Below are positions 8,323 through 33,935 of a stretch of 34,032 bases of DNA, in pieces. The stretch covers positions 1 to 34,032 of the forward strand of contig JABIUG010000525.1 in the NCBI GenBank assembly GCA_018700655.1. The letters run 5' to 3'. Both the position numbers and the translations under genes were made by a program. The stretch comes from Rhodospirillaceae bacterium. GTDB lineage: Bacteria > Pseudomonadota > Alphaproteobacteria > SP197. The notes beneath the pieces were generated by a model. That model was not told where the DNA came from, did not search any database, and saw only the letters and a program-made list of their open reading frames with translations. Numbering within the stretch: position 1 is the first letter of the stretch; every line of letters begins with the position of its first letter.

Positions 8323-9672
8323 TTACGACAACCTCTGCCGCACCCGATCCAGCACATTCTGTGGCGGGCTTGCCTTGGTCCAGTCCGCGCGATCGCCATG
8401 ATGGATCGTCGCATCGATGCCAAGCTTGGAAATGACACCGTCTTTTTCCATCGGCTCGGCCCGATCGGCCTGCACGCCCGGCACCACGATCAGATCGCGT
8501 GCCGGGTCCATGCGATTTGCGACGGCATGTTCGACCGCAACCGGATCCCAGGGGTCGACATCGCCATCGACCACGGTGACCTGCTTGATCAGGTTGACCG
8601 CACCCCAGATCGCAAAGATCGCCTTGCGCGCAGCACCGGGCCGGGGCTGATCCAGACTGACCACCGCATGCAATCGCCCGGCACCACCTGCCGTCACGGC
8701 AACCTCGCGCAGAGATGAAACCGGGCCCCTCAGGCTGCGCGCCAGCCCGGCCGCAATCGCTTCAGCGCCCAGCAGAATGTGTTCAGCGCCATATCCCGGC
8801 AGGACACACTGGAAGATTGCATCGCTCCGCCGGGTCATGGATGAGAAGGTCACGACATAACCCGCGCCATAACGTTCATACATGCCGTGAAACTCGCTGA
8901 CAGGCCCCTCCTCGACGGTCTCGTCGGGGTCGAGCACACCTTCCAGGACGATCTCGCAATGGGCCGGCACCGCCAGATCAACCCCATGACACCGCACGGT
9001 CTCGAGCGGCTCTCCCAACAGCGCGCCGGCGACCTCCATCTCGTCATCGCCGAGACCAAGGTAAAAACACGCCGCCAGCATCACGGCGGGATGATTGCCC
9101 AGCGTCACGGCAATCTCCAACCGCTCGCCACGTTCCTTTGCTGCCCGTGCCAGAACAGCCAGATGGTGGTTGGGAGCAATGCCGATAAAAGCACGGTTGC
9201 CGCCAAGCGGCTTCAGCCGTGCAATCGAAAGATTGCCCCGGCCCGTCGCAGTATCCCTGGCGACGATCGCTCCGGCTGAAATATACGGTCCGGTTTCATG
9301 CTCAAAAAAAGTCGGGATCGGAAGCAGTTTCAGATCAGGATTCTCGATCACCACTTCCTGACAGGGCGCCTGTTCAACCCGGAACGGAGCTAACGGATAT
9401 CTCACCGCATCAATCAGCTTGCCCTGGAGGTCGTCCACTGACACGCCCAGTGCAGCCGCAGCTCTGGCACGAGTCGTCAGATGGTTTCCCGTCACCGGCT
9501 CTTCATGTCTGGCAACAGCCTCGAAGAGCAACGGCGATCCACCATCCTGTTCAATCAGATAGGCCGCAATCTCGTGAACCGGGTCTACCGATTCGCCGAC
9601 GCGAACGAGGTCACCTTCGGCTTCACGATCGGCAATCCAGGCGCGCATGGATTGGCGGTGATGTTTGGTCAA
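8323..9672 (-). CDS. UbiD-family (prFMN-dependent) decarboxylase homologue
   Basis: 449 aa. The N-terminal MRAWIADREAEGDLVRVGESVDPVHEIAA, then NLSIARLKP, and EEGPVSEFHGMY (compare the UbiD EGPFGE-x-x-G-x-Y motif). The TTG start is preceded by AGGAGA and overlaps the upstream stop (TTGA). Confidence 0.85.
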   Translation of the reverse strand: MTKHHRQSMRAWIADREAEGDLVRVGESVDPVHEIAAYLIEQDGGSPLLFEAVARHEEPVTGNHLTTRARAAAALGVSVDDLQGKLIDAVRYPLAPFRVEQAPCQEVVIENPDLKLLPIPTFFEHETGPYISAGAIVARDTATGRGNLSIARLKPLGGNRAFIGIAPNHHLAVLARAAKERGERLEIAVTLGNHPAVMLAACFYLGLGDDEMEVAGALLGEPLETVRCHGVDLAVPAHCEIVLEGVLDPDETVEEGPVSEFHGMYERYGAGYVVTFSSMTRRSDAIFQCVLPGYGAEHILLGAEAIAAGLARSLRGPVSSLREVAVTAGGAGRLHAVVSLDQPRPGAARKAIFAIWGAVNLIKQVTVVDGDVDPWDPVAVEHAVANRMDPARDLIVVPGVQADRAEPMEKDGVISKLGIDATIHHGDRADWTKASPPQNVLDRVRQRLS

Positions 9673-11153
9673 GGAACCTCTCCTGCCGACACCAGGTCGT
9701 CGGCCATGATCCGAACGGTCAGATGATCGGCCAAGTTATGCAGCTCTCCACCCAGCGGCCGATCTGCTTCGACCGGCTTCACACACCCACGTACTTCGCT
9801 GAGCAACACACCAAGCTGCGGCGGCAAACGCTCTCGCCCGGTCACCGCCAGCGCCTGGGATGACGCTGTGGCCAGCACCGCAAGGCAGCGATCCAGCGCC
9901 ACGCCCGCCCGGATCGCCTTGGGCCAGGCAAGAAATGCCGGGGCAGTGACGTCGTCCTGGCCGAACACGCTGGCGTCGGCTGCGGGAATGAAGGTTCGCG
10001 AAGCCGCATCCCTCGCCTCTTCCATGAACCCGACAATCGCCATAGGCAGGTAACCCACTGCTCCGTGGCCATCGGACCCTCCTGCCTGACGCCCGGTCAG
10101 CAGGAAATCTGGATAGCCAGAAGCGCGTCCGTTCAGAAGGCCCACGACCAGACGCAGACAGACAAGACACAGATCAGCCCAGGCGCCGGCCAGGCCATCG
10201 ATCGCGGGCGCCGCGACCGCGTTGTGATAACCGCCCGTGCTGGCGCACCAGCCATGGGGATGGTCACCGTCCGCAGGCAGATAGACCGGATTGTGCGTCA
10301 CCGCCGACAGGCTCTGCCCGGCAAGCTCTCGTGCATGGTTAAGCGCAGCATGGGCCTGACCCAGGACGTGCGGTGCAATGCGATAACCGACCGGGGCCTG
10401 GTGTGTTCGCGCCTCGACGCCATCGGTCATGCCATCGAGCAACCGGACGAGATTGTCGAACGCCGTGGTGTTGTAAGTGCCACCCAAAAGGGTGCCCAAC
10501 ACGGGTTCGTAATGTTCCGACGGCGCGTTGAAGGCGACGATCGCCAGCGCCATAACCTCCTCGGCCATGGCCAGACGCCGCTCGGCGACCAGCACCGCAT
10601 CGGCAAGCACGGCCGCAGCAGCGGGCGATCCGTTGATCAGGGCGCCGCGTTCGCCGGCTTCGAGTTCGAGACGCTGTGTCAGTTCCGCGAAAAGCGAATA
10701 AAGCACCAGGATCTCGCCTGGTCCGCCCTGGCCCTGTTGGGCGACCCGCGGGACTGAACCGGAATTGAGCATCGCGACCAGTTCCTCGGCCAGGCGCGGC
10801 GTTGCCATGCCATGGCCCTCGAGCAGATTGGCAAAACGCGCCAGCACCATCGCGCGCGTGACCCGCACGGGATACGGTTCGCCGAACGGCACCGCCGCAG
10901 CGAGCGGTTTCAGCCGTGCCAGGCGATCACGGTCGGCCTGTGTCATCGCTTCGCCGATCATCTCGCCCTGGCCCTGATTGACGCCATAGACCGAAGCGTT
11001 GGGATCCTTGGTTACATATTCAATAAAGGACGCATGGGACGCGGCAATGCAATCCAGCGCCTTGCCGGAGAGCGCAACGTCCTCTCCACCCCATGCAACA
11101 TCGCGCATCGCATCCAGCGACAGATCAAACCGTGTTTCCAGAACTCTTGTCAT
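9669..11153 (-). CDS. aromatic amino acid ammonia-lyase/aminomutase family (HAL/PAL/TAL) homologue lacking the Ala-Ser-Gly MIO triad
   Basis: Family motifs are present: SVYGVNQGQG (HAL: VYGINTGFG), HNPV (NPL), STGGYHNA (GNFHA) and QAPVGYRIAPHVLG (QDPYSLRCQPQVMG). The MIO position reads GQGGPGEILVL instead of GSVGASGDLAPL. I prefer the ATG at 11153; the longest ORF begins at the TTG at 11180. Confidence 0.85.
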   Translation of the reverse strand: MTRVLETRFDLSLDAMRDVAWGGEDVALSGKALDCIAASHASFIEYVTKDPNASVYGVNQGQGEMIGEAMTQADRDRLARLKPLAAAVPFGEPYPVRVTRAMVLARFANLLEGHGMATPRLAEELVAMLNSGSVPRVAQQGQGGPGEILVLYSLFAELTQRLELEAGERGALINGSPAAAAVLADAVLVAERRLAMAEEVMALAIVAFNAPSEHYEPVLGTLLGGTYNTTAFDNLVRLLDGMTDGVEARTHQAPVGYRIAPHVLGQAHAALNHARELAGQSLSAVTHNPVYLPADGDHPHGWCASTGGYHNAVAAPAIDGLAGAWADLCLVCLRLVVGLLNGRASGYPDFLLTGRQAGGSDGHGAVGYLPMAIVGFMEEARDAASRTFIPAADASVFGQDDVTAPAFLAWPKAIRAGVALDRCLAVLATASSQALAVTGRERLPPQLGVLLSEVRGCVKPVEADRPLGGELHNLADHLTVRIMADDLVSAGEVP

Positions 11154-11200
11154 CGCCCACCCGTCATCGTGCGAAAACAACGCTACAGGAAGGCACGGGC

Positions 11201-12226
11201 TCAGGACATCACGTCGTAGGGATCCCAGGCGGGCTCGCCATCACGCATTACTGTTGTGATCACCTCGAGCAACTGGTCATGGGGTATGGCGGTCGTCCCG
11301 ATTTCTGTCCGGAGTTTCGGGACGATCTCTTCGACGCCATCGAAACTCCAACGTCCCTCTCCGCCTTCGATTTCGTTCAGGGTCTCGGCAAGAGGATGGA
11401 AATCCACTCGCAGCGGTGGCTTGCGGCTCACCATCTGCACCCAGCTTTCATAACGAAACTCGAAATCGGCCCGCTCGCCGCTCAGCGTCAGGACCCGGTT
11501 GCACAGGGTCCGGTTGTGCACCGCCATGGGATGGATCACGACATCGCGGTGCTGGGTAACCCGGTGCGCCGCCTGTTCCGGCCAGTCCGCAGGGACGCGC
11601 ACGACAGCAAGGTCGATATCTCCGATCTCCTCGATCATGGCGACACCCTCCTCAAGCGCGGCTTCGCTGATCTCCAGCAAGGCGTCTTCATCAGCCCACA
11701 AGTCCCGATAGTCTTCGGGCTCAAGGATGATGTTCTTCAACTCGTCCAGCAGTCGCGCATAGATCGCCCCGCAATAACCCGGGTAGTCGGCAAAGGCGTT
11801 TTCAGAGATCACCGACCCGACCCAGGGTGAGGTTGCGGGATCAGCCAGACGAGAGATCGTGAAGGCGATGCGCGCGGCGCGCCGGTCGCTGTAAAAACCG
11901 AAGTCACCAGCCTGTGCGGAATCGATCAGAAGTTTACGATTGGCCAGCGCAAACTCCGGCTCGATCATGCAGAACAGCCCGATCAAACCATCCTCGTCGA
12001 AATGATCGTTGGTGACGGTCGCGACATCACAGTGCCATTCCGGCATATCCAGATACTTGAACACCACAGCAACCGAGGTATCGGCCTTCAGCGGCCACGG
12101 CGTTCCGCTCTTGGGCCAATGCGATAAATTGATCACCGTGTTGTCGTTGCGTTGACCGTCGATCACGATGTTGGGGCCCTTGGCCGCATCGGCGTAGGGC
12201 ATGAAACTGTGGCGGCATGGCAGCAT
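11201..12226 (-). CDS. conserved-looking hypothetical protein, no family recognised
   Basis: 341-aa ORF with coding-like composition and a GGGGAAAG RBS before the ATG at 12226 (alternative ATG at 12202). It ends 20-47 nt upstream of the lyase homologue on the same strand, so it is probably the first gene of that operon. Confidence 0.65.
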   Translation of the reverse strand: MLPCRHSFMPYADAAKGPNIVIDGQRNDNTVINLSHWPKSGTPWPLKADTSVAVVFKYLDMPEWHCDVATVTNDHFDEDGLIGLFCMIEPEFALANRKLLIDSAQAGDFGFYSDRRAARIAFTISRLADPATSPWVGSVISENAFADYPGYCGAIYARLLDELKNIILEPEDYRDLWADEDALLEISEAALEEGVAMIEEIGDIDLAVVRVPADWPEQAAHRVTQHRDVVIHPMAVHNRTLCNRVLTLSGERADFEFRYESWVQMVSRKPPLRVDFHPLAETLNEIEGGEGRWSFDGVEEIVPKLRTEIGTTAIPHDQLLEVITTVMRDGEPAWDPYDVMS

Positions 12227-23372: not shown

Positions 23373-23539
23373 GGCGTTGGCTCTTTTCCTTGTGTTCCCG
23401 GAAGTCTCACGGCCATGCCCCCAACAGTCCAGAGCATTGCAGAAATTCGGCCCTCTTGGTTTCTGGTCTCGTCACCGACTCGACCAACGTCCACCCACAA
23501 GGCAAGCTCTCCCCACCTCTCCTTCAGGAACAGACCATC

Positions 23540-25012
23540 ATGCGTATCTTCGTCGCCGGGCTCGGGACCGAAACCAACACCTTCGCGCCGTTTCCGACCG
23601 CCGAGCGCGGTTTTCACGAAACCGAGTACTTTGCTGCCGGCACCCACCCCGATACGCCGACCTTTGCCGGTGCGCCCCTGATCGCAGCCCGCCGGTTGGC
23701 CGCAGCGGGCAATCATGAAGTGGTTGAGGGCCTGTGCACCTTCGCCGAGCCTTCCGGCATCACGACGCGTCAGGCCTATGAGAGCCTGCGTGATGAAATC
23801 CTCGATCAGTTGCGCGCCGCCATGCCGGTCGATGTCGTCGCATTTTCCATGCATGGCGCGATGGTGGCCGACGGTTATGATGATTGTGAAGGCGACCTGC
23901 TCGCGCGCGCCCGCGAGATCACCGGCCCCGGCGTTGCTCTGGGCGCGGAGCTCGATCTCCACTGTCACTTCACGACCACCATGATCGAGGCGGCCGACGC
24001 GCTCGTCGCCTACAAGGAATACCCCCATGTCGACATCATGGAGCGGGCAGAGGAATTGATGGACCTGCTCACCGCCACCGCCCGTGGTGACATTCGCCCG
24101 GTGATGACGCTCGCCGACACCGGCATCCTCGACATGATTCACACGACCAGGGAACCGGCCCGCGGCCTGGTCGACCGGCTCAGCGCCATGGAGGGCAAGG
24201 ACGGTGTGTTGTCGGTCTCTCTGGGCCACGGTTTTCCCTGGGGCGACGTCGCCGATCTGGGGACCCGCGTCCTGGTTGTCACCGACGACCACCCGGAAAA
24301 AGGCAAGGAACTGGCACTTTCGATCGCAACCGAGGTCACCGCCCTGCGCGGCACCATGGATTCCGGCTCCCTGACCATCGATGAGGCTTATGACCGGGCC
24401 CTTGGCGCCGATGCCAGGCCCATCGTCATGGCCGACAAATCCGACAATGCCGGGGGTGGCGCACCTGGCGATTCCACATGGATGCTGCGCCGCGCCCTGG
24501 AACGGGAAATCACTTCCGTCGCGATCGGGCCTCTGTGGGATCCGATCGCGGTCGGCACCTGCCTGGACGCGGGATTGGGCGCGACACTCGACCTGCGCAT
24601 CGGCGGCAAGATGTGCCCGCTGTCGGGCGAGCCGGTCGATATGCGGGTCACCGTCACCGGGATCTGCCATGACGCCCATCAGCCCTTCGGCCCGGCTCTT
24701 TCTCCGCTCGGCAACTGTGTCGCGGTCAGCGGCGCAGGCGTCGATATCGTGCTCAACACCTTGCGCACCCAGGCCTACGCGCCCGAACTGTTCCGCAATG
24801 TCGGGATCGAACCCACCGAACGGAAAATCGTCATCGTCAAATCAACCCAGCATTTCCATGCCGAATTTGCCCCTATCGCTGCCGATATCGTCCACGTCGG
24901 CGCGCCTGGTGTGGTTGCACCCGACTTCGAGAAACTCGAATTTCAGAAGATCATGCGACCGAAATGGCCGTTCGATGAGGGCGAACCGGAAATCAGATTG
25001 ATCGTCGGCTGA
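23540..25012 (+). CDS. M81 family metallopeptidase (MlrC-like)
   Basis: The ATG at 23540 has an AGGAA RBS and gives MRIFVAGLGTETNTFAPFPT, the characteristic MlrC N-terminus. The protein is 490 aa, with the later motifs FSMHGAMVADGYDDCEGDLL and MADKSDNAGGGAPGDST. The track ORF (23390) is over-extended. Confidence 0.8.
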   Translation: MRIFVAGLGTETNTFAPFPTAERGFHETEYFAAGTHPDTPTFAGAPLIAARRLAAAGNHEVVEGLCTFAEPSGITTRQAYESLRDEILDQLRAAMPVDVVAFSMHGAMVADGYDDCEGDLLARAREITGPGVALGAELDLHCHFTTTMIEAADALVAYKEYPHVDIMERAEELMDLLTATARGDIRPVMTLADTGILDMIHTTREPARGLVDRLSAMEGKDGVLSVSLGHGFPWGDVADLGTRVLVVTDDHPEKGKELALSIATEVTALRGTMDSGSLTIDEAYDRALGADARPIVMADKSDNAGGGAPGDSTWMLRRALEREITSVAIGPLWDPIAVGTCLDAGLGATLDLRIGGKMCPLSGEPVDMRVTVTGICHDAHQPFGPALSPLGNCVAVSGAGVDIVLNTLRTQAYAPELFRNVGIEPTERKIVIVKSTQHFHAEFAPIAADIVHVGAPGVVAPDFEKLEFQKIMRPKWPFDEGEPEIRLIVG

Positions 25013-25023
25013 CCGCGCCCGAT

Positions 25024-25063
25024 CCCTTCACGCTAAATCCGTTCACGCCCTACCCGTTCACGA
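25024..25063 (+). promoter_or_regulatory. three direct CC[C/G]TTCACG repeats at exact 15-bp spacing, candidate operator/regulatory site
   Basis: TTCACG begins at 25027, 25042 and 25057, inside the 72-nt gap between the M81 peptidase stop and the CocE/NonD start. Function is unknown. Confidence 0.3.
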
Positions 25064-25084
25064 GATTCCCTCAGGAAATCCAGC

Positions 25085-27103
25085 ATGACCCACAGCTTTG
25101 CCGCCAATCCCCGCGCCATTCATGAGATCGAGCACAGCTGGATCCCCATGCCCGACGGCACAAGACTGGCGGCCAAGATCTGGATTCCGATCGATGCCGA
25201 AGAAGAGCCGGTTCCCGCGATCCTGGAATACCTGCCCTATCGCAAGCGTGACGGCACGCGCGGCCGCGACCGCACCAACCATCCCCCCGTCGCCAAATGC
25301 GGCTATGCCTGTGTCCGGGTCGACATTCGTGGCACCGGCGACAGCGAAGGCATCTACCGGGATGAATACACACCCCAGGAACAGGAAGACGGCTGCGCCA
25401 TCATTGCCTGGCTTGCCGAACAGTCCTGGTGCACGGGCTCGGTTGGGATCATCGGGATCAGCTGGGGTGGCTTCAACGGCCTGCAGATCGCAGCACGCCG
25501 CCCACCGGCACTCAAGGCGATCGTCACGATCGGCTCGACCGACGACCGTTACGCCACTGATGTCCACTACTACGGCGGCTGCCTGATCAAGGACAACATC
25601 GACTGGGCCGCGGTGATGTTCGGCTACAACGCCCTGCCGCCCGACCCAGAACTGGTCGGCGAAAACTGGCGCGAGATGTGGAATGCGCGCCTGGAAGCCA
25701 ACGTGCCCTGGACGCTGGAATGGCTGCGCCATCAGCGGCGCGACGATTACTGGCGTCAGGGCAGCGTGTGCGAAGACTTCTCCAAGATCACATGTGCCGT
25801 CTATGCCGTTTCGGGCTGGGGAGACAATTACAACGAAGCCGTGCCGCGCCTGCTTGCCGGGCTTGATGCTCCGGCAAAGGGCCTTTCCGGCCCCTGGTGC
25901 CACCAGTATCCCAACAAGGGTTATCCCGGCCCGGCCATCGGGTTTCTGCAGGAGACCGTGCGCTGGTGGGATCACTGGCTGAAGGGGATCGATACCGGAA
26001 TCATGGAAGAACCGGCCTGGCGCGCATGGGTCCAGGACAGCGCGCCGCCCGTGACCGCCTATGACGAGCGTCCGGGCCACTGGGTCGGCGAAGAGAGCTG
26101 GCCCAGCGCCACGATCGACTGGCAACGCTGGAACATGAACCCGGGTCGGCTGGAACGCGATGCCGGTGCGGCCACGCCCCTCGTCTTGAAATCACTCCAG
26201 ACCACCGGCCTCACCCAGGCACAACTTTGCCATCACGGCGAGCCCGGCTGTTTCTCGTCAGACCAGCGCGAGGACGATGCCGGCAGCCTCGTCTTTGTCT
26301 CCGAACCGCTTTCGCAGTCACTGGAAATCCTCGGCGCGCCGATCGTCGAACTCACCCTTTCGTCGGACAGACCCACGGCCTTTGTCGCCGTCCGCCTCAA
26401 CGACGTCGCCGCGGACGGTGCCTCGACTCGTGTTCATCACGGCATCCTCAACCTGACCCGCCCGACGGATTGCTCAACGACCACACCGCTGATGCCGGGC
26501 GAGCCTCTCACGGTCCGCGTCGAGATCGACGACATCGGTCACGCCTTTGCCGCCGGACACCGCATCGCGGTCTCGGTTTCATCGACCTATTGGCCGCTGG
26601 TCTGGCCTTCGCCGGAACCTGTGACGCTCACGCTGGTCGCTGGTCAGTGCCATCTGGAACTCCCGGTTCGTCCGACTAATCCAACCGATGCCGCCCTACG
26701 ACCCTTCCAGGAAGCGGTGAACGGCCCGGGAGAAGAGACCACCGCGATCAACGAGGCCGCCGTGACCCGCACCATCACGCGCAACATGCTCGATGGCACC
26801 GTTACCGAACACACCATCTTCGATGACGGCCTCACCTTTCATAACGAACTCGCGCTAACAGATGGCGCCCACGGGCAATCCTGGCACAGCGTGCGCGAAG
26901 GTGATCCGCTCTCGGCGGAATCCCGCACCGAACGGGTCGATCACTGGAAGAAGAACGGCCTCGAGATCGAACTTCACACCCGCCAGCACCTCACCGCCGA
27001 TGGCACCGACTTTCATTTCACGGCCAAAATGGAAGCCTTCGAAAACGGCCAGAAGGTCTTTTCGCGCACATGGGAGGAAGCGATTCCCAGAGACGGAAAC
27101 TGA
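25085..27103 (+). CDS. CocE/NonD family hydrolase (S15 X-Pro dipeptidyl-peptidase-like)
   Basis: 672 aa. PAILEYLPYRKRDGTR, nucleophile elbow GISWGG, and a C-terminal beta-rich domain (GHRIAVSVSSTYWP). It is paralogous to the gene at 2..1507. Confidence 0.9.
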   Translation: MTHSFAANPRAIHEIEHSWIPMPDGTRLAAKIWIPIDAEEEPVPAILEYLPYRKRDGTRGRDRTNHPPVAKCGYACVRVDIRGTGDSEGIYRDEYTPQEQEDGCAIIAWLAEQSWCTGSVGIIGISWGGFNGLQIAARRPPALKAIVTIGSTDDRYATDVHYYGGCLIKDNIDWAAVMFGYNALPPDPELVGENWREMWNARLEANVPWTLEWLRHQRRDDYWRQGSVCEDFSKITCAVYAVSGWGDNYNEAVPRLLAGLDAPAKGLSGPWCHQYPNKGYPGPAIGFLQETVRWWDHWLKGIDTGIMEEPAWRAWVQDSAPPVTAYDERPGHWVGEESWPSATIDWQRWNMNPGRLERDAGAATPLVLKSLQTTGLTQAQLCHHGEPGCFSSDQREDDAGSLVFVSEPLSQSLEILGAPIVELTLSSDRPTAFVAVRLNDVAADGASTRVHHGILNLTRPTDCSTTTPLMPGEPLTVRVEIDDIGHAFAAGHRIAVSVSSTYWPLVWPSPEPVTLTLVAGQCHLELPVRPTNPTDAALRPFQEAVNGPGEETTAINEAAVTRTITRNMLDGTVTEHTIFDDGLTFHNELALTDGAHGQSWHSVREGDPLSAESRTERVDHWKKNGLEIELHTRQHLTADGTDFHFTAKMEAFENGQKVFSRTWEEAIPRDGN

Positions 27104-30324: not shown

Positions 30325-31140
30325 TCACCACTGCTCTGCAACAAGCGGATCGGTCGCTTCAACCACCCAGCCCTCGCGTGCAACCAGCGCATCCAGGTTT
30401 GCCTGACGATCGTCGAGATCCGGGTGGTTCTGCATGAACGAGGGTAAATCATCAGAGCCAAGTGCAGCGGCGCGCAAGGTATCAAGCGCTTCGACGTAAC
30501 CGCCGGCGTGTCCATAGTGCGTAACCAGTGTTTTCAGACCGTCGGCATCGGCTTCACTCTCGCGTTCCCTGCTGAATTGCAGAACCACCAGGCCGCCCCC
30601 GCCCGCGATAACGGATTCGACCGAACCCGACTCACCCGAAAGGACGAACATCCCAAGGGCCAGCATCGCGCCACTCCCCATGGAACGCATGACGTCCCGA
30701 TTTTCGATATGGCCGACTTCGTGGCCCACGACCCATGCCAGAGCCTGTTCGCTGGGCAATGCTTCCAGCATTGCCCCGGGTCACGACCAGATAACCACCC
30801 GAGGTCGCGTAGGCATTGACGCCCCGTGCTCGAGCACAACGGCCTTGATCGTCATGTCATCGGGTAACCCGGCCGCATGGGAAAGGTCATCGACCAGTTC
30901 CTGCAGGCGCGCTGACCCTGAAACCTCGGCGCCGTGGATGACCGCCGCGAAGGGTCCTGCCATCGCACGTTCCCAGGAAAAGGGGATCAGCGGTGCAAGC
31001 AGGCCACCCAGAAGCATCAGCCCGCCGATGATCGCGATGCCCAGCGCGACCACGCTGGTGCCCAACATCACCAGATCGCGCAGCGGACGCCCACGTCCGC
31101 CGTTGATACCTTCCGGAATCTTCGGATTTCTGTAGGTCAC
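30325..31140 (-). pseudogene. M48 family zinc metallopeptidase, interrupted by a compensated double frameshift with an in-frame TGA
   Basis: The track ORFs 30781..31140 (TM N-terminus) and 30325..30771 (HEVGH zinc motif in VVGHEVGHIENRD) are in the same frame, separated by a TGA at 30781-30783. Between about 30777 and 30822 the conserved M48 segment VNAYATSGGYLVVTRG is readable only in a different frame. Both junctions lie at G/C runs. Confidence 0.75.
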
Positions 31141-31604
31141 TGACCCGGGTTCACGCCCCAGACCGCCGTGCCATAGGCCAGGACCTCAACCGATCCCGCA
31201 CGCCTGTCGTCGAAGAAGACCCGTGACGTCTCCAGCTTCACATTCACGATATGGCTGGCGCCAAGTTCTCTAGCCTGCTGCTTCATGCGCAACACCGCTT
31301 CACGACGTGAACGTTCGACCAGGGATTCATAAGCATCGATCTGGCCGCCCACGAGACCGCGCAGATAGGCCAGGAACCGCTTGAAGTAGTCGATCGAAAT
31401 CACGGCATTGCCGCTTACCAGTGACCCGCCTGCAGATGGGGGAGCATGACGCGTGGCAAAAACCAGGAGGCTGCGCAGTTCCTCTTCCCGACGCCGGATC
31501 GAGGCATAGTGCCTCTTCTCGTTGATCTGGCCGATAACGTAGCCAACGAGAAGCAGCAGCACGAAGAAGCCGAAGACGCCCAAGTCGGCAATCCACTCGA
31601 GCAT
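31137..31604 (-). CDS. membrane-anchored YbjQ/UPF0145-family protein
   Basis: 155 aa. N-terminal TM (LGVFGFFVLLLLVGYVIG) followed by YbjQ-like VSGNAVISIDYFKRFLAYLRGLVGGQI...GASHIVNVKLE...VEVLAYGTAV. Its stop overlaps the M48 GTG start (GTGA). Confidence 0.75.
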   Translation of the reverse strand: MLEWIADLGVFGFFVLLLLVGYVIGQINEKRHYASIRRREEELRSLLVFATRHAPPSAGGSLVSGNAVISIDYFKRFLAYLRGLVGGQIDAYESLVERSRREAVLRMKQQARELGASHIVNVKLETSRVFFDDRRAGSVEVLAYGTAVWGVNPGQ

Positions 31605-31607
31605 GAT

Positions 31608-31931
31608 CTAGGCCACGTCTTCAACGACCACGGCGGTACCATAGGCCATGAGTTCGGCCGACCCCTGAGAGATCGTGGAGGTCGAGAAGCGCACATTCAG
31701 AACTGCGTTGGCGCCGACGGCCTCGGCCTCCTTCACCATGCGCTGCACCGCAAGATCGCGCGACTCGGTCAGCAATTCGGTGTAGCCCACGAGCTCACCG
31801 CCAACGATGTTCTTCAGTCCGGCCATCAGATCGCGGCCGATATGTTTGGCGCGCACCGTGTTGCCGTTGACCAGCCCCAGATGGCTGACGACACGTTTGC
31901 CTGGAATGTCTTCGATGTTGCTCAGGATCAT
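31608..31931 (-). CDS. YbjQ/UPF0145-family protein (soluble)
   Basis: The ATG at 31931 has a GAGGAA RBS and gives 107 aa. The sequence is LGLVNGNTVRAKHIGRDLMAGLKNIVGGELVGYTELLTESRDLAVQRM...GANAVLNVRF...ELMAYGTAV. The track ORF (32003) is over-extended. Confidence 0.85.
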   Translation of the reverse strand: MILSNIEDIPGKRVVSHLGLVNGNTVRAKHIGRDLMAGLKNIVGGELVGYTELLTESRDLAVQRMVKEAEAVGANAVLNVRFSTSTISQGSAELMAYGTAVVVEDVA

Positions 31932-32018
31932 CGGCGGTTTCCTCGACCATTCGGTGGAACCGCAACTATACACCCTCGGTTGCGGTCGCCAATGCGACGG
32001 CAAGGACGCCCGCAGGCT

Positions 32019-33935
32019 TCAGGCAGGATCGGCAGATGCGGAATCGTCGGGAGCAGTTTCGGTCGGGCCGGTGTTGTCGGACATGCCGCCGTTCGATGCA
32101 TCGAACTGCAGTTCTGCCAATCTGGCGTAGAGGCCACCAGCCGATACCAGGTCGTCATGGCGTCCCTGTTCGACAATCCGGCCCTGTTCGAACACCAGAA
32201 TGCGGTCAGATTTCAGGATCGTCGCCAGACGATGGGCAATCACCAGCGTCGTGCGCCCTTCCATCAGACGTTCCAGCGCCCGTTGCACCATGTGTTCACT
32301 TTCGGCATCAAGCGCACTGGTCGCCTCATCAAGCAACAGGATCGGCGCGTCCTTGAGGATGGCGCGCGCAATCGCAACGCGCTGGCGTTGGCCGCCTGAA
32401 AGCCTGGCGCCGCGTTCACCGACAAAGGTCTCAAACCGTTCAGGCAGGCACTCGATGAATTCCGTGGCGAAGGCGGCATCCGCCGCAGCGCGAACCTCCC
32501 GGTCATTCGCACCCGGCCTGCCGTAGCGAATGTTGTCGGCAATCGAAGCACCAAAGATCACCGGCTCCTGGGGAACCAGCGCCATGCGCTCGCGCAACAT
32601 GTCGAGCGAGGCATTCCGGACGTTGACCCCGTCGATCGCGATCGTGCCTTCTTCGGGGTCATGGAAGCGCAACAACAGACGGAACAGGGTGCTCTTGCCA
32701 GCACCCGAGGGGCCGACAAGCGCCACCGTCTCACCAGCGGCAACCTCGAACGAGACACCATCGATTGTCGCCTCGTCGGGTCTTGCCGGGTAATGGAAGA
32801 TGACATCAGCGACCGATACCGTTCCAGGCGACGGCCTTGGCAGGCGTTCAGGCAGACGGGGGGAACGAATCTCGGGCTCACTTGCGAGCAGTTCGCTCAG
32901 CCTTTCAGCAGCACCGGCAGCGCGTTGCAGATCGCCATAGACTTCGCTGATGGCCCCGACCGATCCGGCGACCACAACGGCGTAAAACACGAAGGCCGCA
33001 AGGTCGCCGCCGCTGATGCGTCCCGAAAGCACATCGTGCCCGCCCATCCAGAGCACACCGCCGATGCCACCAAAGGCCAACAGGATGACCGATGCAGTCA
33101 GGAAGGCGCGTGCACGTATCCGCTCCACAGCGGTATCGAAGGCGTCTTCAACGGTTTCGGCGAATCGTTCACCTTCAAAGCCCTCGCGCACGAAGGCCTG
33201 AACCGTGGGGATGGCATTCAATGTCTCATCGACTCGGTGGCCGACATCGGCAATACGGTCTTGCGACAGGCGCGAGAGTTTGCGCACCTTGCGTCCGAAC
33301 ACCAGAATCGGCACCAGAACGACCGGCACCAGAAGAATCACGAACGCCGATAACTTGAAGCTGGTCACCATCAGCATGACCAGGCCACCGATCAGGAGCA
33401 GAACATTGCGCAGGGCCATCGAAAGGCTCGAACCCACGACAGTCTGGAGAACCGAAGTATCGGTCGTCAGGCGCGAGAGCACCTCGCCGGTCCTGGTGAT
33501 CTCGAAAAAGGACGGCGGCAGGGCGATGACGCGCTCAAACACATCACGCCTGAGATCGGCGACGACGCGCTCACCGATCCACGACACCAGATAAAACCGT
33601 GCAAAACTGGCACAAGCCAGCATCACGACGATCGCGATCAGGGCAAACAAGGCGCTATCGAGCAAATCGGTGTTGCCCCGCGACAGGCCGTAATCGATCA
33701 GGGTACGCAGCCCCGCACCCATCCCCAGCACGGTGAATGCCGCGATGAACAGGGCGACCAGGGCACCTGCAATCTGTTTCTTGTAGGGCAGTAGATAGGG
33801 CGCCAGGCGTCGCAGATGCGTAAAATCACGGCTGCGCGCACGTTCGCTCGCACCATCCTGGGGGCCGTTTTCCGGCGTCTTTCGTCTGGGCTTCAACACG
33901 GTCGCTGCTATATCAGTGGCTGGATGTGCCAACAA
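32019..33935 (-). CDS. ABC exporter, fused permease/ATPase (ABCB/MsbA-like half transporter)
   Basis: 638 aa. Six-TM N-terminal domain, then Walker A GPSGAGKST, signature LSGGQRQR and Walker B ILLLDEATSALD. The start (TTG at 33935) is uncertain. Confidence 0.92.
   Translation of the reverse strand: MLAHPATDIAATVLKPRRKTPENGPQDGASERARSRDFTHLRRLAPYLLPYKKQIAGALVALFIAAFTVLGMGAGLRTLIDYGLSRGNTDLLDSALFALIAIVVMLACASFARFYLVSWIGERVVADLRRDVFERVIALPPSFFEITRTGEVLSRLTTDTSVLQTVVGSSLSMALRNVLLLIGGLVMLMVTSFKLSAFVILLVPVVLVPILVFGRKVRKLSRLSQDRIADVGHRVDETLNAIPTVQAFVREGFEGERFAETVEDAFDTAVERIRARAFLTASVILLAFGGIGGVLWMGGHDVLSGRISGGDLAAFVFYAVVVAGSVGAISEVYGDLQRAAGAAERLSELLASEPEIRSPRLPERLPRPSPGTVSVADVIFHYPARPDEATIDGVSFEVAAGETVALVGPSGAGKSTLFRLLLRFHDPEEGTIAIDGVNVRNASLDMLRERMALVPQEPVIFGASIADNIRYGRPGANDREVRAAADAAFATEFIECLPERFETFVGERGARLSGGQRQRVAIARAILKDAPILLLDEATSALDAESEHMVQRALERLMEGRTTLVIAHRLATILKSDRILVFEQGRIVEQGRHDDLVSAGGLYARLAELQFDASNGGMSDNTGPTETAPDDSASADPA

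Follow-up and report, generated by a model that had tools for sequence, protein, structure and literature searches.

The window analysed here, the whole 34,032-nucleotide contig JABIUG010000525.1 of a Rhodospirillaceae bacterium (assembly GCA_018700655.1), carries on its minus strand a gene for a protein of the histidine/phenylalanine ammonia-lyase (HAL/PAL) family, PF00221 (hereafter, for brevity, the lyase), which, judging from its sequence, is a member of a large and uncharacterised clade incapable of forming the 4-methylideneimidazol-5-one (MIO) prosthetic group. MIO has long counted as the defining feature of PF00221, and the characterised members without it are few, namely ergothionase and the histidine-betaine lyases. 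The MIO-less part of the family turns out to be much larger than known: a profile search of 1.84 billion representatives (E<=1e-30) gave at least 382 clusters of the wider clade at 50% identity, and relatives were detected by tblastn in at least 183 bacterial species, each represented by one genome. As for the function, we lean, tentatively, to a MIO-independent Cα-N lyase acting on an ergothioneine-like betaine and coupled to a decarboxylase dependent on prenylated flavin mononucleotide (prFMN), the UbiD-family product of the adjoining gene.

The mechanical open reading frame (ORF) of the lyase, 9669..11180(-), reaches a TTG at 11180; the coordinates adopted for the gene and for other features of the locus are collected in Table 1. 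The ORF matches PF00221 with 165.7 bits (Pfam cut-off 27.3), its NCBIfam equivalog scores fall far under every cut-off (e.g., 150 against 524 for HAL), and no curated family specific to the lyase was found in NCBIfam, where only sub-threshold matches to HAL and tyrosine aminomutase (TAM) were returned. The AlphaFold2 model of the protein (predicted local distance difference test score 87.2, predicted template-modelling score 0.90) was matched by Foldseek to HAL, tyrosine ammonia-lyase (TAL) and TAM with template-modelling (TM) scores of 0.8-0.86, the top values belonging to Treponema denticola ergothionase 6s7j (0.84-0.86, root-mean-square deviation 3.4-3.6) and Pseudomonas putida HAL (0.85). 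The original prediction held that the ORF is intact and embedded in an operon and that codons GGA CCA GGC put Gly-Pro-Gly where HAL, PAL and TAL have Ala-Ser-Gly. Both points are borne out by reading and alignments: the lyase is a complete PF00221 protein contiguous with the UbiD gene, and the segment 10650..10800(-) reads GTC GCC CAA CAG GGC CAG GGC GGA CCA GGC GAG ATC CTG, i.e., V-A-Q-Q-G-Q-G-G-P-G-E-I-L, with GGA at 10724-10722, CCA at 10721-10719 and GGC at 10718-10716. The other family landmarks that had been listed, VYGVNQGQG, HNPV, GGYHNA and the Arg of the QDxYSxR region, are all present.

Table 1. Positions of the lyase gene, its diagnostic motifs and the adjoining genes in the window
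Feature	Position	Strand	Remarks
Gene of the MIO-less HAL/PAL-family (PF00221) protein	9669..11153	-	494 aa from ATG at 11153; homologues and gene callers start at MTRVLETR
Gly144-Pro145-Gly146 (GGA CCA GGC), where MIO enzymes have the Ala-Ser-Gly triad	10716..10724	-	Reading and alignments
Family signature G-Q-G-G-P-G-E, residues 141-147	10713..10733	-	G141, G143, G144, G146 and E147 invariant
Tyr56 of the Tyr loop (VYGVNQGQGEMI), the family's catalytic base	10986..10988	-	Retained (alignments)
Q252-A-P-V255-G-Y-R258, the clade's version of QDxYSxR	10380..10400	-	Gln and Arg kept; Tyr280 equivalent is Val
UbiD-family (prFMN-dependent) decarboxylase gene	8323..9672	-	Nearest solved structure HmfF
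DUF6687 gene, directly upstream of the lyase	11201..12226	-	Probably co-transcribed

MIO is formed with elimination of the Ser beta-hydroxyl, which leaves the methylidene. According to this established chemistry, neither Pro nor Ala at the central position offers a beta-hydroxyl to be eliminated, so that no methylidene and no MIO would arise. The earlier assignment of Pro as the blocking feature is therefore right as to its effect but too narrow, given that Pro is a variant of one subclade, the family consensus is G-A-G, and Ala blocks too. No Ser-bearing triad was found in the lyase in any alignment register, whether by phmmer, profile or MAFFT, and alignment with HAL, TAL, TAM and family sequences disclosed no genuine (A/T/C/S)-S-G triad, which supports the view that the protein is probably not a conventional ammonia-lyase and has no MIO.

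The exact register of the loop calls for some caution. In phmmer comparisons with PDB chains and in a 37-sequence family profile, GQGG sits under the G-x-x-G that precedes Ala-Ser-Gly in the structures of HAL, TAL and TAM, P-x-V-x-x-x-G-Q-G-G being aligned with their P-x-V/I-P-x-x-G-S/T-V/L-G. The alignments break after the motif and resume about 19 query but about 41 target residues later, at KEGLALINGT/ERGALINGSP, and hence the clade is devoid of the hairpin of some 22 residues that follows the canonical MIO helix. Counted from its first conserved Gly up to the acid that caps the helix, the loop has 7 residues (GQGGPGE) versus 8 in canonical enzymes (GSVGASGD), and because of this one-residue shortening the aligners disagree by one position. 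In the MAFFT alignment Pro faces Ala142 and Ser143 faces a gap, whereas Gly-Pro-Gly would fall under Ala-Ser-Gly, as originally read, if Glu147, at which the helix following the motif starts in the AlphaFold2 model and which caps this helix, is taken as the counterpart of Asp145 of P. putida HAL; a few distant relatives reading GQG-ASG-E at the same spot support the latter register. The place of the motif was thus given correctly, although in the shorter loop its one-to-one mapping onto Ala-Ser-Gly is approximate. Beyond the triad, the lyase is also altered at Tyr280 (Val), His83 (Ala) and Glu414 (Gln), in addition to the loss of the hairpin.

Conservation was followed in a close family, defined as the best 120 homologues in a 5.8-billion-protein collection, all 120 carrying PF00221 and 119 spanning the motif region. 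Each of these 119 reads G-[QH]-G-G-x-G-E, with x being Ala in 79, Pro in 38, Gly in 1 and Ser in 1, and none has ASG. In 17 orthologous loci Pro is encoded by CCA, CCG, CCT or CCC; this variation, together with the lack of ASG among the close homologues, rules out sequencing error or chance as the source of the Pro codon, and the use of four synonymous codons indicates that Pro is under selection. Neighbour-joining of 111 full-length members showed at least 8 changes at the Ala/Pro position. Since Ala, Pro, Gly and Ser are tolerated there, the central motif residue behaves, as far as sequences tell, as a tolerated structural position unlike a cofactor-forming one.

Tyr56 is invariant in the close family. 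In the wider clade, represented by 66 full-length sequences outside the close family, the central residue is Ala in 27, Pro in 20 and Ser in 11, Ser thus being mostly absent, and high conservation extends over Tyr56 (58 of 66), Asn174 (58), Gln252 (60), Pro254 (59), Val255 (55), Arg258 (61), Asn288 (59) and Glu147 (55). The clade signature combines GxGG[A/P]GE, QAPVSxR in place of QDxYSxR and the hairpin deletion; Ala-Ala for Ser-His83, Gln for Glu414 (profile and MAFFT) and a clade-specific S-D-G-H-G loop at the position of Phe329 are further features. Clade proteins are entered in public records as “histidine ammonia-lyase” or “aromatic amino acid lyase”, names that are probably wrong. Among distant clade members, P0129, P0139 and P0144 read G-x-G-A-S-G-E or similar and could in principle form MIO; P0128 and P0129, the latter having a true ASG, are located on contigs shorter than 2 kb and are uninformative for gene context.

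The absence of MIO has a precedent within PF00221, as ergothionase, histidine-betaine lyase and SO_3299 are MIO-less trimethylammonia-lyases strictly needing the trimethylammonium group of their substrates (bioRxiv 2025 and 2026 for Swoo_3913 and SO_3299), and they can dispense with MIO because trimethylamine is a good leaving group without an electrophile. Ergothionase (6S7J; Burkholderia ErtA) and the lyase of the S-methyl-ergothioneine-type cluster on Agrobacterium tumefaciens plasmid pAt15955 share with the clade the PF00221 fold without Ala-Ser-Gly, the Tyr-loop base and the Gln/Arg/Asn carboxylate site, and the equivalent of Tyr280 is aliphatic both in the A. tumefaciens lyase (Leu in QDPLSLR) and in the clade (Val). 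They differ, however, at the triad, where the A. tumefaciens protein reads GSVG-YLT-H and the clade GQGG[A/P]GE; ergothionase-type lyases have the post-motif hairpin, His83 and Glu414, whereas the clade is without all three; and the linkage to UbiD/UbiX, observed for the clade, has no counterpart in the described ergothioneine pathways. Opposite the thiolate-binding Lys384 of TdETL, a residue specific to ergothionase, MAFFT sets a Lys of the A. tumefaciens lyase (GKCTG) over a clade Gly in S-D-G-H-G, in a weak and insertion-rich region of the alignment. The histidine-betaine and N(pi)-methyl-histidine-betaine lyases Swoo_3913 and SO_3299 are likewise MIO-deficient PF00221 proteins, but they are periplasmic, coupled to flavocytochrome urocanate reductases and furnished with imidazole-binding His and Glu, while the lyase has neither of these residues, is predicted to be cytoplasmic (start-site calls, no signal peptide) and is coupled to UbiD. 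With P. putida HAL (1B8F), Rhodobacter sphaeroides TAL (2O6Y) and Streptomyces globisporus TAM (2OHY) the fold and the Tyr loop are common, YGVxxGxGEMI being nearest to TAM, as are the Asn of ALINGxP, the Arg of QDxYSxR, the Asn of DNP/HNP and the PAL/TAL-like QD motif; Ala-Ser-Gly, the one-residue-longer loop, Tyr280 (Tyr300 in TAL, Tyr351 in PAL) and the hairpin of these enzymes are all missing from the lyase. When a presumed canonical ergothionase-type lyase was submitted to NCBIfam, it gave only sub-threshold HAL-family matches, and on these grounds NCBIfam appears to have no ergothionase model.

Lyase activity is preferred because the base and the carboxylate-binding residues are kept, whereas residues linked to MIO, i.e., the triad Ser and the Tyr280 equivalent, are lost. 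An alpha-substituted propanoate would be bound via Arg258, Gln252, Asn174 and Asn288, Tyr56 would remove the beta-proton, as in ergothionase and histidine-betaine lyase, and a good leaving group would depart without electrophilic help. This group would most likely be trimethylamine, and its source an amino acid derived from histidine and N-trimethylated, as ergothioneine or S-methyl-ergothioneine are; the substrate may be an S-alkylated or otherwise modified histidine betaine, the predicted ring pocket being unlike that of all characterised members. The expected product, a (hetero)aryl-acrylic acid, could then be handed to UbiD and/or Ert enzymes. We infer all these elements, namely the lyase activity, the leaving group, the substrate and the UbiD step; the analysis itself shows the loss of the MIO-forming residues, the retention of base and carboxylate site, the HAL fold, purifying selection and the gene linkage.

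The start of the UbiD gene is ambiguous, being either a TTG that overlaps the lyase stop by 4 nt (TTGA) or an in-frame ATG (MRAWIA) 24 nt further on, around which homologues conserve Q-S-M-R; judging from the coordinates, the two genes are contiguous whichever start is used. Its product matches PF20695, PF01977 and PF20696 (N-terminal, core and C-terminal domains) as well as TIGR00148 (291 versus a cut-off of 245). The nearest solved structures are HmfF furan-2,5-dicarboxylate decarboxylase (6h6v, E 7.5e-82) followed by indole-3-carboxylate decarboxylase. The protein keeps N-L-S-I-A-R-L and E-G-P-V-S-E-F, that is, the Arg and Glu-x4-Glu motifs, whose catalytic roles we presume by extension from Fdc1. 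The same pairing of a PF00221 lyase with a UbiD-family decarboxylase is found in PAL/TAL plus Fdc1/UbiD-type routes of acrylic-acid decarboxylation. There, however, the decarboxylase is Fdc1-like, whereas here it is of HmfF-like heteroaromatic-acid type (41% identity to HmfF) and its partner is MIO-less, and a simple vinyl-forming route does not account for the pair of the relatives being set amid ergothioneine-catabolic hydrolases.

Gene neighbourhoods of relatives were inspected over +/-8 kb in 80 loci from Mesorhizobium, Inquilinus, Dongia, Rhodobacteraceae, Steroidobacteraceae and others, the megaplasmids of Rhizobium tropici and Rhizobium jaguaris being analysed by tblastn. Whether Gly-Pro-Gly variants always neighbour UbiD, as had been asked initially, can be answered largely in the affirmative: UbiD lies directly downstream of the lyase in all 10 loci with GQGGPGE, and a convergent UbiX-UbiD pair accompanies 5 of the 6 loci with GHGGPGE, the sixth being cut by a contig end. 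The association is much looser in the Ala type, only 10 of whose 64 loci have UbiD within 8 kb. The genes of Mesorhizobium and Dongia are for the most part solitary, set amid unrelated genes. Two neighbours could be assigned by equivalog models: the amidohydrolase matches hydantoin-5-propionate amidohydrolase ErtD (NF058538, 779 bits, cut-off 600), and the M20 hydrolase matches N-carbamyl-L-glutamate amidohydrolase ErtE (NF058540, 564 bits, cut-off 520). The ErtD proteins of Mesorhizobium and Rhodobacteraceae share 64-78% identity with their counterparts in the Agrobacterium/Ensifer clusters and 62.8% with that of Paracoccus aminophilus.

The arrangement of these genes varies. An ErtD-ErtE-UbiD-UbiX operon divergent from the lyase occurs in Mesorhizobium and R. 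jaguaris, Rhodobacteraceae have ErtE-ErtD, LysR, the lyase and then UbiX-UbiD, and R. tropici CIAT 899 has LysR, UbiX-UbiD and then the lyase. One strand of the Roseiarcus locus L044 carries a Liv-type ABC transporter, S-methyl thiohydantoin desulfurase, GST, S-methyl thiourocanate hydratase, UbiX and the lyase, the desulfurase scoring 544 bits against NF058532 (cut-off 450) and the hydratase 952 bits against NF058531 (cut-off 880); no canonical ergothionase is encoded in this locus and no UbiD within 8 kb of the lyase, UbiX alone lying directly upstream. Canonical clusters comprise desulfurase, GST, ErtE, hydratase, Mo-oxidoreductase, ErtD, a betaine ABC transporter and MIO-less “hutH” in A. 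tumefaciens pAt15955, and ErtD, ErtE, desulfurase and hydratase in P. aminophilus, and comparison of the gene orders implies that in L044 the clade lyase stands in the place of ergothionase. A betaine/ergothioneine-catabolism neighbourhood was recognised in relatives L044, L018, L022-L024, L048, L053, L063 and R. jaguaris, and not in the window, where UbiD is the only partner. The linkage to UbiD/UbiX and Ert genes offers a testable entry to a missing piece of thiohistidine/betaine turnover in soil and sea, which bears on trimethylamine production and sulfur cycling, and the connection of the clade with UbiD may reveal a new substrate class for prFMN enzymes.

Some loci have a different composition. 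The lyase, UbiD, an ErtD-like amidohydrolase (558 bits, under the cut-off of 600), a racemase-like gene and a CN-hydrolase (carbamoylase-like) are found at L026:9464-13879, the Asp/Glu/hydantoin-racemase-like gene being assigned from sequence with no NCBIfam match, and as a whole the locus resembles a cassette for hydantoin utilisation that employs another type of carbamoylase. In L029 and L064, from Steroidobacteraceae and gammaproteobacterial metagenome-assembled genomes (MAGs), PuuD-like and DAO-type genes, and in L029 also a PuuA-like gene, come before the lyase, while a Dpp/nickel/opine-type substrate-binding protein and ABC genes come after it, a context faintly suggestive of the import of some peptide- or opine-like conjugate.

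UbiDs adjoining clade lyases or Ert genes constitute one subfamily, its members being 42-78% identical mutually and 36-41% identical to HmfF and keeping the catalytic Arg and E-x4-E. Each of the 11 plasmid records of the collection in which a UbiD of this type occurs has it next to Ert genes and/or a PF00221 lyase. Ensifer canadensis pT173d (L090) encodes an MFS transporter, then ErtD-ErtE-UbiD-UbiX, then LysR, with no lyase in this locus and no clade member on the plasmids of this species in the collection. Thalassospira marina pCSC3H3 (L096) encodes ErtD, ErtC, ErtB, UbiD and a TRAP transporter, an unannotated gap that would fit ErtE following ErtD. In A. vitis S4 pAtS4e (L097/L098) LysR is followed by UbiD-UbiX, a Dpp-type ABC transporter, ErtD, ErtE and HutH, the latter with genuine GSVGASGD and QDQYSFR. 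Irrespective of the lyase type, the prFMN decarboxylase appears to be a recurrent, apparently undescribed member of ergothioneine-like catabolic clusters, and a literature search found no paper on this clade or on a UbiD step in ergothioneine catabolism. The lyase of a Lichenihabitans psoromatis plasmid (L100:11709-13241) reads GSVGASGD/QDPYCIR and is of MIO type, whereas that of A. tumefaciens (L088:13227-14720) reads GSVG-YLT-H/QDPLSLR and is MIO-less; yet hydratase and desulfurase of the S-methyl type are closely homologous between both clusters, the Lichenihabitans hydratase being 82% identical to that of A. tumefaciens and the NCBIfam assignment of this pair having been tested for A. tumefaciens only. 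Different lyases combined with common S-methyl-type genes suggest that some such clusters take a primary amine, perhaps S-methyl-2-thiohistidine, rather than a betaine.

A more elaborate and rather doubtful version of the betaine scheme would see the MIO-less lyase and UbiD (with UbiX) as a two-enzyme entry module replacing ergothionase in an undescribed branch of thiohistidine/ergothioneine/S-methyl-ergothioneine catabolism, with UbiD doing a step new for its family on a (thio)urocanate-type heteroaryl-acrylate. This step would be either decarboxylation into another route or non-decarboxylative covalent catalysis analogous to that of NAD+-dependent (thio)urocanate hydratase. The separate idea of UbiD as a replacement for ErtB/ErtC was weakened by the T. 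marina operon, which has ErtB, ErtC and UbiD, and by L044, which has ErtB, ErtC and UbiX.

A number of observations weigh against a betaine lyase coupled to UbiD. Clade proteins are only 16-25% identical to ergothionases (25% for the A. tumefaciens lyase), and the profile E-value is 2.4e-20 to 6s7j versus 1.8e-33 to 1e-28 for HAL and TAM; by these sequence measures the clade is a separate group not specifically related to ergothionases. The imidazole-binding His (His83/117) and Glu (Glu414/467) correspond to Ala86/Ala87 and Gln399 of the lyase, and with the ring-binding residues changed, ergothioneine itself may not be the substrate or may bind differently. UbiD is absent within 8 kb from 54 of the 64 Ala-type loci, most of which are also without an Ert gene, and neither Ert genes nor UbiX were found within the 34-kb window. 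Related clusters of A. vitis and Lichenihabitans carry a MIO-containing HAL instead, so that such clusters are not restricted to betaines. Finally, the known five-step ergothioneine route has no place for a decarboxylase, and decarboxylation of thiourocanate would not yield hydantoin-5-propionate, so that this route does not account for a joint chemistry of lyase, UbiD and ErtD/E.

In a rival reading the lyase, still MIO-independent, would act on a non-betaine, expelling another group such as a ureido or N-carbamoyl one, or ammonia from a beta-activated amino acid as aspartase does, and the resulting alpha,beta-unsaturated di-acid would be decarboxylated by UbiD. We regard such a substrate as unlikely, although His83 -> Ala and Glu414 -> Gln make the protein unlike all known imidazole-binding lyases, the coupling is tight to a decarboxylase whose substrates must have their carboxylate in conjugation with a double bond or heteroaromatic ring, linkage to ErtD, ErtE, the hydantoin-racemase-like gene and the CN-hydrolase (L026) is repeated, and a Dpp or opine-type ABC transporter adjoins in some loci. 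Leaving groups of this kind are without precedent in PF00221; ErtD and ErtE score above their equivalog cut-offs, and ErtD is close to its canonical counterparts (64-78%), which points to glutamate-forming chemistry; furthermore, the neighbours in L044 are enzymes of S-methyl-thiourocanate, a substrate which a betaine/amine lyase makes. That the protein is an inactive HAL-like pseudoenzyme serving UbiD as a structural, regulatory or substrate-delivering partner seems improbable: the loss of the prosthetic group and of the Tyr280 equivalent would agree with inactivity, and the coding region abuts or overlaps that of UbiD in the window clade, but conservation of the catalytic Tyr, Arg, Gln and Asn extends over a clade diverged to less than 50% identity, UbiD is missing within 8 kb of most family members, Ensifer pT173d and T. 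marina have a UbiD of this subfamily but not the lyase, and the known MIO-less relatives are active enzymes.

Least credible of all appears an ammonia-lyase or aminomutase for a primary amino acid that would employ another electrophile, either a MIO-like ring made from Gly-Pro-Gly/Gly-Ala-Gly or prFMN supplied by the linked UbiX. UbiX without UbiD within 8 kb does lie directly upstream of the lyase in L044, and a few distant clade members have ASG, GSG or SSG at the triad spot. Against this, Ala and Pro are without a beta-hydroxyl and cannot, by established MIO chemistry, yield a methylidene, four different residues (A, P, G and S) are tolerated at the position, the clade is without the counterpart of Tyr280, which has an assisting role in MIO chemistry, and we know of no precedent for prFMN outside UbiD-fold proteins.

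The minus-strand order in the window is DUF6687, lyase, UbiD, the trio being inserted between fba/thiE/efp/suhB and pgk/gap/tkt. DUF6687 was considered as a third component of the system and rejected, as it adjoins the lyase only in the closest relatives; it fills the fba-pgk gap without the lyase or UbiD in alphaproteobacterium L091 and elsewhere (L092). Several alphaproteobacteria have DUF6687 in this gap, some together with the lyase-UbiD pair and some without it. The 341-aa DUF6687 protein (AlphaFold2 local confidence 91.5) has no significant PDB match, the best ones being DHH-type phosphoesterases (NrN, exopolyphosphatase; E 6e-3, TM 0.25-0.33), and its invariant D23, H36, H75-F-D77-x-D79, D108 and H232 hint at a metal site. 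A scan of the operon for promoters and terminators gave nothing above background, and no compositional sign of recent horizontal transfer was seen, the GC content at third codon positions being 0.69 for the lyase and 0.66 for UbiD, similar to pgk. The lyase sequence turns up repeatedly in seawater metagenomes, Rhodospirillales-like MAGs of marine origin are nearest to it, and two marine metatranscriptomes contain contigs 100% identical to lyase parts 9668-9868 and 10799-10991, a weak sign that the gene is expressed. Elsewhere in the window, an M81/MlrC-like metallopeptidase (DUF1485 + MlrC_C) is followed by an S15 X-Pro dipeptidyl-peptidase-like hydrolase at 23390-27103(+), and two tandem YbjQ-like (PF01906) genes at 31137-32003(-) adjoin an ABC exporter (32019-33935).

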